Virus record (IMG/VR): IMGVR_UViG_3300045988_087939
From: a virus
Taxonomy: Duplodnaviria > Heunggongvirae > Uroviricota > Caudoviricetes
Strand: one strand, 5' to 3'
Length of the DNA: 17,676 nucleotides
Notes under the pieces: generated by a model
Databases searched by the model: none
What the model saw: the letters and a program-made list of their open reading frames with translations, nothing else
What the model was told of the DNA's origin: nothing
Program-made: the position numbers and the translations under genes
Shown: positions 3,892 through 11,983 of the stretch, piece by piece
Layout: each line of letters starts with the position of its first letter
Numbering within the stretch: the stretch's first letter is position 1

Positions 3892-3910
3892 TTTTATCCA
3901 GGCAGAGGCT

Positions 3911-3947
3911 GATGCGCAATTAAACATTGAGCGGCCATGCTGGTCGC
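3911..3947. terminator. Stable hairpin between convergent genes S (+) and the cargo gene (-); possible bidirectional terminator
   Basis: Perfect 13-bp inverted repeat TAAACATTGAGCG (3911-3923) / CGCTCAATGTTTA (3935-3947) around an 11-nt spacer whose ends can add 3 more pairs. No strong U-tract on either side. Confidence 0.45.
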
Positions 3948-3962
3948 TCAATGTTTAGAGGT

Positions 3963-4748
3963 TTATGAGTGATTTTTATTTGATGCTTTGTATTCTAAAA
4001 CCTTCTTATTGGCGTAAAAGAATTTTGTATATGACAGGAATATAACCAGACCTGAAGTGAAATAGACGAGGGATAGTATTAATAATGCTTTTTTGTGACT
4101 GTTATTATCTTTAATCTCCTGGCTTAACCATTCGGAGTCCTCCTCGTTTAGCTGTAAGAGCTTATTGCAGGCGATTTCAGGAAGTGTGTCTTTTATAAAT
4201 ACGTTTTGCAGTCTCTTGCAATCGGCAAGGCTATAAGTTTTATTAAATTCAACTGCTTTATTTTTGAAGGATAAAAGAACTTTGTCACTATAAACATAGT
4301 ACATCATGTTTTTATATGGTATGCCTATGGCATCCCTTACTATAACGGATTGTTCGTTGTGTATGTAACATGCGAGGAGAATGTAAAAAATACTGGCCAG
4401 AATTACAATTATTGTTTTAATTATGTGTGGTGGTTTTGTTATGTCACCCCAGATGCGAGTAAGGAAAAAATACGATGTTTTTAGTTTTCCATCAATCAGT
4501 CCCTGCTGTATCATTCTCACATTTTCAATGCCTGATACATTGATTCCGTTAATTATTTTAAATAGTTGAATGTCGCGCCACTCGCGGTCAAGTCTTTTTA
4601 ATTTTTTGTCTGAATATCCAAAATTGAAATAATGTGCAATAAGCCTCATAAGGTTACTTTTACCAAAGCTAAAAAATGCTAATACTGCAAAGCTACAAAG
4701 GAAAAAAACGATTAGCCCCCACACATTAGTCACATTATAGCTGACCAT
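3963..4748 (-). CDS. AT-rich cargo (moron) gene: hypothetical 261-aa membrane protein with three predicted transmembrane segments, function unknown
   Basis: Reverse-strand ORF with a strong SD (AAGGAGAG) 4 nt upstream of the ATG. About 33% G+C in a sampled line against roughly 60% in flanking phage genes. Hydrophobic segments near residues 10-28, 103-123 and 220-240. Occupies the S-V junction, where P2 carries orf30. Confidence 0.8.
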   Translation of the reverse strand: MVSYNVTNVWGLIVFFLCSFAVLAFFSFGKSNLMRLIAHYFNFGYSDKKLKRLDREWRDIQLFKIINGINVSGIENVRMIQQGLIDGKLKTSYFFLTRIWGDITKPPHIIKTIIVILASIFYILLACYIHNEQSVIVRDAIGIPYKNMMYYVYSDKVLLSFKNKAVEFNKTYSLADCKRLQNVFIKDTLPEIACNKLLQLNEEDSEWLSQEIKDNNSHKKALLILSLVYFTSGLVIFLSYTKFFYANKKVLEYKASNKNHS

Positions 4749-4763
4749 TACGCTCTCCTTGGA

Positions 4764-4784
4764 TGTTGTCTGGTAGTTCTACAA
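4764..4784 (+). promoter_or_regulatory. Candidate late-promoter activator (Ogr-type) dyad upstream of V
   Basis: TGTTGTCTGGTAGTTCTACAA contains TGT-N11-ACA (4767-4783), about 50 nt upstream of a TATATAT -10-like element near 4808-4814. P2 late promoters carry a TGT-N12-ACA element near -55, so the spacing is off by one. Confidence 0.3.
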
Positions 4785-4831
4785 ATGAATCCAGATAGCA
4801 TAACTTTTATATATTGTGCAATCTCACATGC

Positions 4832-10369: not shown

Positions 10370-11983
10370 ATGAGCAATTCATTTTCAATTACACTACCTA
10401 CAAAAGAAAAAGACCTAGCGGAAATAGAGACTAATCAGAGCGTGCTTATTATCGGTGCGAATGGCTCTGGAAAGTCTCGCCTTGGGACATGGATGGATCT
10501 AAAATCTCCTCAAAGAAATATTGTTCATCGTATTTCCGCTCAGCGGGCTTTAGCGATGCCTGACCATACAACACCAACTTCGCTTCAACAAGCACAGAAT
10601 AATTTACTCTATGGAATTGAAAATTTGGAAGGGTCGGAACTACTTTGGTATAAAGAGAATTATCGCTGGGGAAGTAAACCTGCCATATCATCATTAAATG
10701 ATTATGGTAAATTAATGGTGTATCTCTTTTCAGACAAAATTGAAGAAAACTCGAAATATATTGAATTAGTTAAATCTTCAGAAAAAAGAATTGAACCAAC
10801 GACGACTAAATTAGATAAAATTAAATATATTTGGGAAAAAACATTACCTCACCGAGAGCTTGTTTTAGGCGGTTTGACAATTCAAACACGAGCAAAAGGA
10901 AATAACGAGGCTGTCTATAACCCCTCGGAAATGAGCGACGGTGAGCGAGTTATTTTCTATCTGATTGGGCAATGTCTTGCAGCACCCGAAAATGGAATTA
11001 TTGTCATAGACGAGCCAGAAATTCATCTTCACAAATCTGTACAAGTTCCATTATGGAAGGATATAGAAAAACTCCGACCTGATTGCCTGTTTGTATATAT
11101 GACTCATGATACTGATTTTGCTGCAGCACTGCATGATGCAAAGAAAATCTGGTTAAAAAGTTATGATGGTTCCAGTTGGGATTGGGAAGATGTTCCCGAT
11201 GTCGAAGGCCTACCAGAAAGTTTATTAATTGAAATATTGGGTAGTAGAAAACCAATTGTTTTTGTTGAGGGGGAAAATGGAAGCTATGATGTATCCCTTT
11301 ATCGTGCTGTGTTAAATAGTTATCTAGTGATACCATCTGGTTCTTGTAGTCAAGTAATACAAAATGTTAAAGCTCTAAGAGCCAGTGAAAAACTCCATTA
11401 TATGGAAGTTTTTGGTATTATTGATAGGGATAGACGTGTTGAAAATGAAATTCAATCGCTTCTGGAATACGGTATTTATACTCTAAGCGTGGCTGAAGTC
11501 GAAAATCTCTTTTGCGTTCCGGAAGTTATAACTTTAGTTAGCGAACGATTAGTCAGGAATCCAGATAAAGATCTACAATCAGTTAAAGATTTTGTGTTCC
11601 GTAAAATATCCTCAGAGCTGGATACTCAGATTTCACTGCGTGTGGCTGGCGAAATTAAATTCATGCTTAATTGTTTTGATGAAAAAGCAAAAGGGGTCGA
11701 TGCTCTTAGTAGAGCTCTTGAGTTGTTGACGTCACAAATTAATGTTAAAGAGCTTTATGATGAAAGTTTATCTCTGTTTAATAATGCAGTTGAGAAACGT
11801 GATTATCTTCTTGCATTAAAACTTTATAACAGGAAAAGCCTTTCATCCCAAGTAAGTAAGCATCTGGGGCTGGCTAATGGACAGCTTGCTGAATTAGTGG
11901 TCAGGATGGCTAATAATGAAAGTGGAGAGTCAATGAGAAATGCTCTCAGACCATATTTTGGTGAGTTTTCGAGTAAAATATAG
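10370..11983 (+). CDS. Cargo gene in the G-FI (Z/fun) hotspot: ABC-type ATPase fused to a Toprim/DUF4435-like putative nuclease domain; candidate single-gene anti-phage defence protein (OLD-like or fused PARIS-like)
   Basis: 537 aa. Walker A GANGSGKS (aa 29-36, nt 10454-10477); signature-like MSDGER (aa 188-193); Walker B IIVIDEPE followed by HLH (aa 210-221); H-loop-like YMTHD (aa 243-247). C-terminal half has Toprim-like motifs: IVFVEGENGSYD (aa 296-307), IIDRDRR (aa 350-356) and VAEVEN (aa 374-379), then a helical tail. G+C is about 25-43% in sampled lines. Confidence 0.8.
   Translation: MSNSFSITLPTKEKDLAEIETNQSVLIIGANGSGKSRLGTWMDLKSPQRNIVHRISAQRALAMPDHTTPTSLQQAQNNLLYGIENLEGSELLWYKENYRWGSKPAISSLNDYGKLMVYLFSDKIEENSKYIELVKSSEKRIEPTTTKLDKIKYIWEKTLPHRELVLGGLTIQTRAKGNNEAVYNPSEMSDGERVIFYLIGQCLAAPENGIIVIDEPEIHLHKSVQVPLWKDIEKLRPDCLFVYMTHDTDFAAALHDAKKIWLKSYDGSSWDWEDVPDVEGLPESLLIEILGSRKPIVFVEGENGSYDVSLYRAVLNSYLVIPSGSCSQVIQNVKALRASEKLHYMEVFGIIDRDRRVENEIQSLLEYGIYTLSVAEVENLFCVPEVITLVSERLVRNPDKDLQSVKDFVFRKISSELDTQISLRVAGEIKFMLNCFDEKAKGVDALSRALELLTSQINVKELYDESLSLFNNAVEKRDYLLALKLYNRKSLSSQVSKHLGLANGQLAELVVRMANNESGESMRNALRPYFGEFSSKI

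Follow-up and report, generated by a model that had tools for sequence, protein, structure and literature searches.

The S-V segment carries orf30 of phage P2

The window analysed here, a stretch of 17,676 nucleotides of a Caudoviricetes virus (IMG/VR record IMGVR_UViG_3300045988_087939), corresponds to the late-gene region of a prophage of P2 type, whose genes R, S, V, W, J, I, H and G are all encoded by the plus strand. Between S and V, at positions 3892-4831, it carries a single gene on the minus strand. This gene is orf30 of phage P2. It is a genuine gene maintained by selection and not a chance open reading frame (ORF), it is predicted to encode an inner-membrane protein with three transmembrane (TM) helices, and it may possibly serve the prophage by excluding other phages.

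The interval reaches exactly from the stop codon of S (3891) to the start of V (4832) and contains one long ORF, which begins with ATG and codes for 261 amino acids (aa). The content of guanine plus cytosine (GC) was 34% in the segment and 33.8% in the ORF (35.9% at third codon positions), compared with 52.5% in the window. A 300-bp profile showed a GC of 0.33-0.37 between 3900 and 4800, down from about 0.57. An earlier reading made without database searches (the sequence-only reading) had described an AT-rich S-V segment of about 0.9 kb, a lone gene opposite in strand to the late genes on both sides and a near-perfect Shine-Dalgarno sequence. All three were borne out, as the coordinates of the gene and its ribosome binding site show:

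3963..4748, minus strand: orf30 coding sequence, 261 aa plus stop codon, the same as P2 Orf30 AAD03281.1 and intact in relatives
4755..4760, minus strand: Shine-Dalgarno sequence AAGGAG, 6 nucleotides before the ATG and near-invariant across 70 loci

The same reading had placed the segment where P2 carries orf30. The position was right, yet the gene is orf30 itself. The DNA of the segment was 98.9% identical to phage P2, and tblastn showed 99.6% aa identity with P2 Orf30 over 261 of 261 residues, i.e. a single residue differs (AF063097 9439-10224; AAD03281.1). Orf30 furthermore matched PHROG 2407 over its full length with an E-value of 5.5e-149, and a prophage of E. coli strain MB07081 contains the segment with 100% identity. 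In the P2 record orf30 bears the annotation 'nonessential'. The P2 literature describes it as unknown and counts it among three loci at which P2-like phages differ (PMC3091744, PMC2771037, PMC6823313). Thus orf30 is already known; what we add are the predicted topology, the conservation of its domains, a probable link to DUF6216, the history of the slot and the connection to a published result on H-NS.

Maintenance of the reading frame and constraint on its domains

All nine alleles sampled from phages and E. coli chromosomes were 786 bp long and free of indels and stop codons, with a nucleotide divergence of up to 14.6%. The ratio of nonsynonymous to synonymous divergence (dN/dS) between diverged orf30 alleles was 0.41-0.61, while that of the flanking S and V was 0.03-0.22. 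Among 80 IMG/VR viral contigs with the gene, 73 copies were intact at 261 aa, three were cut by the ends of the contigs and one (L094) was truncated at 222 aa; the remaining three were diverged homologues, for which the length call hinges on the choice of the start codon. Because the frame is intact and under purifying selection in the relatives, we conclude that orf30 is a real gene. The sequence-only reading had named loss or disruption of the ORF in relatives that keep the AT-rich segment, and homology to a structural phage protein, as signs that would speak against it. With 73 intact copies against one truncated copy the former was not the case, and no homology to a structural phage protein was found.

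The 70 close copies comprised 53 nucleotide alleles and 45 protein variants. The corresponding ratio for polymorphic sites, pN/pS, was pooled by region over these copies and is a rough measure, given the non-independence of the pairs:

whole gene: 0.50
predicted cytoplasmic domain: 0.34
predicted periplasmic domain: 0.28
C-terminal tail: 0.33
TM2: 0.70
TM1: 1.48
TM3 (few sites): 1.47

The soluble domains are under constraint. TM1 is hypervariable, with 15 of its 21 sites varying among close alleles. The membrane anchors vary freely or are possibly under diversifying selection.

Predicted membrane topology of Orf30

Orf30 contains 25 lysine and 19 asparagine residues, and three 19-residue windows exceeded a Kyte-Doolittle value of 1.6, in agreement with the Lys/Asn-rich protein with three hydrophobic segments that had been proposed before. 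The segments lie at about residues 9-29, 112-130 and 221-241. Lysine and arginine are lacking ahead of TM1. In the first loop they outnumber aspartate and glutamate 15 to 7, in the second loop there are 13 of each kind, and the tail has five basic residues. By the positive-inside rule this distribution of charges places the N terminus outside, loop 2 in the periplasm, and both loop 1 and the tail in the cytoplasm. Orf30 is thus predicted to be a three-pass inner-membrane protein in N-out orientation, organised as follows:

4662..4724, minus strand: TM1, residues 9-29, N terminus predicted outside (hydropathy, charge count)
4416..4661, minus strand: predicted cytoplasmic helical domain, residues 30-111, 82 aa (charge, alignment, AlphaFold2 model)
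4359..4415, minus strand: TM2, residues 112-130 (hydropathy, AlphaFold2 model)
4089..4358, minus strand: predicted periplasmic domain of a beta-meander and helices, residues 131-220, 90 aa (hydropathy, alignment, AlphaFold2 model)
4026..4088, minus strand: TM3, residues 221-241 (hydropathy, AlphaFold2 model)
3966..4025, minus strand: basic cytoplasmic C-terminal tail, residues 242-261, with conserved N247 and K254 (charge, alignment)

An alignment of 26 relatives revealed the motif W-x-D-x-Q-L-F-[KR]-x-x-N-G-I-N-V in loop 1, where Q61, G68, N70, D76 and G87 are conserved. In loop 2, C177 is present in at least 90% of the members and C194 is invariant. The motif positions are kept down to about 20% identity. 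C177 and C194 probably form a periplasmic disulfide; the confinement of the cysteine pair to the predicted periplasmic loop supports the topology. An AlphaFold2 model computed with the family alignment had a predicted local distance difference test (pLDDT) score of 84 and a predicted template modelling (pTM) score of 0.71. In this confident model the cytoplasmic domain has three to four helices, the periplasmic domain combines a four-strand beta-meander with two helices, and the last helix is long and takes in TM3.

Relatives of Orf30 and the link to DUF6216

A scan of 1.8 billion representative proteins returned just 36 relatives, and those with a named source genome came from E. coli, Serratia and Enterobacter; the family is thus a small one of the Enterobacterales. 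Pfam gave no match for Orf30 at E-values up to 10, in line with the absence of a recognisable motif stated by the sequence-only reading, and NCBIfam gave nothing beyond noise. A match to a tick protein in NCBIfam was rejected as noise (E 0.018, 15 bits versus a cutoff of 120). A search for remote homologues and similar structures had been proposed at the outset; run with sequence profiles against PDB (noise only, E of at least 0.09) and with Foldseek against the viral structures of BFVD (nothing below E 0.06), it was not informative. The sequence and fold searches revealed no likeness to a known defence, exclusion or structural protein, nor to an immunity, transport or signalling family.

Orf30 probably stands on the fringe of DUF6216 (PF19723) as judged by profile comparisons, and is not a proven member. 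Orf30 itself fails to reach the gathering threshold of 27.3 bits. Ten of the 26 relatives match DUF6216 weakly, and one relative, P0028 (25% identity with Orf30), exceeds the threshold along its full length, at 28.9 bits. In hhalign the alignment of the Orf30 family against the DUF6216 clade scored a probability of 64% and an E-value of 6.4e-5 over 104 columns, which correspond to the C-terminal half of the periplasmic domain, TM3 and the tail. Direct comparison of Orf30 with the DUF6216 protein of E. coli BL21 gave a pairwise similarity of 23% over 172 residues (E 0.067). The BL21 protein had no match in the genomes of isolated phages. Stronger evidence for the link than these scores comes from the genomic position that the two groups have in common.

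Distribution and history of the S-V slot

Phage fiAA91-ss lacks the gene and has an S-V spacer of 66 bp; its similarity to the window ends right past the stop codon of S and returns at the ATG of V. The same 66-bp spacer occurs in WPhi, L-413C and many others, the span being 1155 bp compared with 2029 bp. The gene was located between S and V and antisense to the late genes in all 80 IMG/VR loci with visible flanks. Of 5426 complete E. coli genomes 464 (about 8.5%) carried the segment, 460 of them at full length and always in the chromosome. P2-type V was present at 1812 places in 1583 genomes, and 483 copies of orf30 against these 1812 V genes correspond to an occupancy of about 27% of the S-V junctions. 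Of 76 close phage records about 20 carry orf30 and most others have the empty 66-bp spacer. The comparison of junctions suggested by the sequence-only reading thus revealed a polymorphic site, which is mostly empty and in phage R18C holds another gene. The R18C gene (L020 583-1323) codes for an unrelated soluble protein of 246 aa on the plus strand, i.e. that of the late genes. Its product contains Cys-x-x-Cys / His / Cys-x-x-Cys-Asn motifs and weakly matches HNH_5 (E 0.0096).

The segment has two marks of a moron, flanking genes that are adjacent in close relatives and a deviant GC content; of a third, a promoter and terminator of its own, the analysis showed a strong hairpin terminator but no good sigma-70 match upstream. 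The earlier view of a horizontally acquired moron stands in so far as the segment is an AT-rich, polymorphic insertion. Against a plain acquisition are homologues of 24-40% identity that occupy the same slot in the same orientation. The antisense slot between V and S holds P0028 at locus L024, a homologue of 24% identity in a P2-like prophage of Serratia, and homologues in six IMG/VR loci (31-40% identity) and a metagenome-assembled genome of Enterobacter. In addition, the DUF6216 gene ECD_RS04470 lies in the S-V slot of the P2-like prophage of BL21(DE3) that carries retron-Eco1, near 0.885 Mb. In the diverged loci that were compared, V was 63-86% and S 40-51% identical to the proteins of the window. 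Since diverged homologues share slot and orientation in diverged P2-like prophages, the family looks like an old, fast-evolving resident of the slot and less like a random insertion of recent date.

The gene also outlasts the phage around it. In the defective prophage of REL606 orf30 is intact, while the S and portal genes are truncated and abut each other. In a Serratia remnant a homologue lies next to ecotin and the phage genes are gone. In Enterobacter sp. ECC-219 (L022 5600-7200) a 35%-identical homologue stands alone in an islet of about 1.5 kb with 36-40% GC, in a background of 55-65%. No conserved partner gene accompanies the family across the loci.

Several of these loci have further features. 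The REL606 prophage (2096000-2122000) carries an 'ABC-three component system' and an AAA ATPase at old/tin and a glycosyltransferase at Z/fun. The ECC-219 islet is flanked by a cluster of an extracytoplasmic function (ECF) sigma factor and Dsb genes and by a chemoreceptor gene, and for 6 kb around it phage genes are absent. In Serratia and metagenome loci (L005, L007, L008, L009) genes of the Orf30 family recur beside an ASCH-domain gene and ecotin, a spot which in some genomes adjoins the integrase or a gpR fragment of a P2-like prophage. The spot looks like an attachment site at which the membrane-protein gene was left after decay of the prophage. Finally, the S-V slot of a P2-like prophage of Serratia liquefaciens (L006 9085-9879) holds two AT-rich genes. 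One is the Orf30 homologue; the other encodes a protein of 264 aa that belongs to no Pfam family, is hydrophobic at its N terminus and for the rest is long, charged and probably coiled-coil.

Expression signals

The gene is bordered by two intergenic elements:

3920..3958, no strand assigned: hairpin with a perfect stem between the convergent S and orf30 (-26.8 kcal/mol on the plus and -21.3 kcal/mol on the minus strand, z about -6 on both strands)
4749..4831, no strand assigned: spacer of 83 bp between the divergent orf30 and V, with the site for the activator Ogr of the V promoter P_V at about 4763-4790 (coordinates from the P2 record)

The hairpin is a bidirectional terminator, given in the P2 record as the O operon terminator; Rfam gave only sub-threshold matches to it. 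The spacer must also contain the 5' region of orf30 and is part of the replaced segment. It occurred in only nine variants at the 70 loci that carry 53 alleles of orf30. In phages with orf30 P_V differs in sequence from the P_V of phages with the 66-bp spacer, which implies that this late promoter moves together with the cargo.

In the P2-like prophage of BL21 the DUF6216 gene is reported to coincide with an H-NS peak in chromatin immunoprecipitation sequencing and to be derepressed in hns/stpA mutants (2026 preprint, bioRxiv 10.64898/2026.09.05.749240). In the stretch of the BL21 prophage that was examined ECD_RS04470 is the only gene annotated as DUF6216. Silencing by H-NS thus has direct evidence in a remote BL21 relative and may extend to orf30; the one H-NS-type feature seen in orf30 itself is its AT-richness.

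A second cargo locus in the window

At the position of Z/fun in P2, between the tail-fibre assembly gene G and the sheath gene FI, the window contains an ORF of 537 aa (10370-11983, plus strand) with a GC content of 0.35-0.39. It matches AAA_21/ABC-type ATPase domains and DUF4435 (E 1.9e-20) in an OLD-like layout of ATPase plus nuclease, and among isolated phages only Oenococcus phage phi9805 gave a match, a protein of 28% identity. The ORF is probably the first moron of the sequence-only reading and likely a defence gene.

Possible functions of Orf30

The annotation as nonessential in P2, the occupancy of about 27% of the junctions and the survival of the gene in REL606, in the Serratia remnant and in the Enterobacter islet support an accessory role on the side of the prophage. 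A function in defence or exclusion is plausible. We tentatively favor the view that Orf30 is an envelope protein expressed from the prophage that excludes other phages, which is a serious possibility though short of a probable one. The gene would be transcribed from the prophage independently of the late genes, because it is antisense to the late operons, has its own terminator and is very AT-rich, and H-NS would set a low level of expression. The product would be a single-protein barrier in the envelope to the benefit of the lysogen. Its periplasmic domain might meet the ejection machinery of an incoming phage or a host factor of the inner membrane used by the phage, so that entry of the genome would be blocked (superinfection exclusion) while adsorption would be unaffected. 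The conserved cytoplasmic domain may anchor or regulate the block. An analogy, and no more than that, is YmfE of e14, an H-NS-silenced prophage membrane protein reported to block T5-like phages after adsorption (bioRxiv 10.64898/2026.09.05.749240).

A number of results weigh against exclusion as the function. Homology to YmfE ('Kunado') was rejected at an hhalign probability of 0.1%. No phenotype is on record for orf30, the 2024 hotspot preprint cites old, tin and fun/Z as the source of the exclusion phenotypes known from P2 lysogens, and the large surveys of P2 hotspots do not name orf30. Cargo diversity at S-V is low, with mostly orf30-family genes or an empty site, unlike the hotspots at old/tin and Z/fun. 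None of the 5027 models of PADLOC-DB v2 matched Orf30, and its 26 relatives produced only noise (E of at least 0.0067, one member each). Upstream of orf30 there was no sigma-70 match of at least 9 of 12 positions. The promoter of orf30 would hence be weak, unconventional or regulated, which makes expression in lysogens uncertain. The fold searches being uninformative, the mechanism is derived from context and topology alone.

Orf30 could also act in lysogenic conversion other than defence, as an envelope protein that promotes fitness of the lysogen through a change in host physiology, for example in stress tolerance, tolerance to bacteriocins or tailocins, the surface or transmembrane signalling. 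The persistence of the gene in prophage remnants and in islets free of phage genes points to selection at the level of the host and leaves open whether defence is what is selected, and a periplasmic disulfide domain joined to a cytoplasmic domain recalls the layout of transmembrane signalling proteins. Yet the protein resembles no known immunity, transport or signalling family, and its strict tie to one slot of P2-like phages across genera suggests a role related to phages. We consider this explanation unlikely.

The contextual evidence for exclusion by an envelope protein applies equally to an abortive-infection effector. Such a protein would reside inertly in the inner membrane, sense an infecting phage through its cytoplasmic or periplasmic domain, oligomerise, collapse the membrane potential and kill the cell before phage release, similar to RexB but as a single protein. 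Three TM helices and two conserved soluble domains would suit a sensor-plus-pore protein, and silencing of the BL21 homologue by H-NS would suit a potentially toxic product. On the other hand, the gene has no partner, its product lacks any known sensor or effector domain, PADLOC gave no match, and the TM helices which would line the pore are the least conserved part of the protein (pN/pS of 1.48 in TM1). An effector of this kind appears quite unlikely.

A contribution to the life cycle of the phage itself, in which the protein, or just the segment with its terminator and P_V, tunes late expression, lysis timing or tail assembly, is improbable. The segment does contribute the P_V region as well as the terminator at which the upstream late operon ends, the orf30-V spacer varies far less than the gene, and the slot is kept across diverged P2-like phages. 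But orf30 is annotated as nonessential and antisense to both late operons, about 73% of the close relatives manage with their own 66-bp spacer in its place, and the gene survives in defective prophages that cannot make virions and in islets without phage genes. Least of all do we believe in a functionless, decaying or selfish remnant that persists by chance or by hitch-hiking, a reading already disfavored: in about 30 years no function has been assigned, a promoter is not evident and constraint is relaxed relative to S and V (dN/dS 0.45 versus about 0.1), but 53 alleles with up to 14% divergence retain an uninterrupted frame of 786 bp with one truncation per 73 intact copies, pN/pS of the soluble domains is about 0.3 and the motifs are kept to about 20% identity.

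Few genes of the classical model phage P2 are left without a function, and orf30 is one of them. Maintenance of the frame, the topology, the old slot, the probable link to DUF6216 and a BL21 relative reported to be silenced by H-NS make it a concrete candidate for phage exclusion or lysogenic conversion. If a role in defence holds true, a well-studied group of phages would gain a third immunity locus, and orf30 would stand for a new family acting at the membrane; if not, it is an ordinary accessory gene. It is conceivable, though doubtful, that Orf30 and DUF6216 together constitute an unrecognised anti-phage family of single-gene, membrane-embedded proteins with a fold and mechanism of their own, and that S-V is a third, ancient immunity locus kept quiet by H-NS.

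Comparison with known systems

With P2 the window shares the length of Orf30, its position between S and V, its orientation, the terminator and the P_V region; it differs from P2 in the cargo gene at the Z/fun locus. The DUF6216 protein of E. coli BL21(DE3) (ECD_RS04470) has in common with Orf30 a length of about 250-270 aa, a collinear membrane layout, an AT-rich gene, a cysteine pair in the loop that precedes the final TM helix and an antisense S-V-like slot in P2-like prophages. The N-terminal cytoplasmic motif of the Orf30 clade, in contrast, was not part of the alignment with the BL21 clade.

Old, Tin and Fun/Z are soluble proteins with demonstrated exclusion phenotypes. Like orf30, their genes are AT-rich, non-essential cargo at fixed slots of P2 that vary between relatives. 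The cargo in the old, tin and fun/Z slots is very diverse, whereas the S-V slot mostly contains an orf30-family gene or is empty.

YmfE/Kunado belongs to another type of prophage and to another locus. Yet it shares with the layout of Orf30 that a single, AT-rich prophage gene codes for a multi-pass membrane protein. Thus, by analogy only, YmfE/Kunado may be regarded as the functional model most similar in its logic to Orf30.

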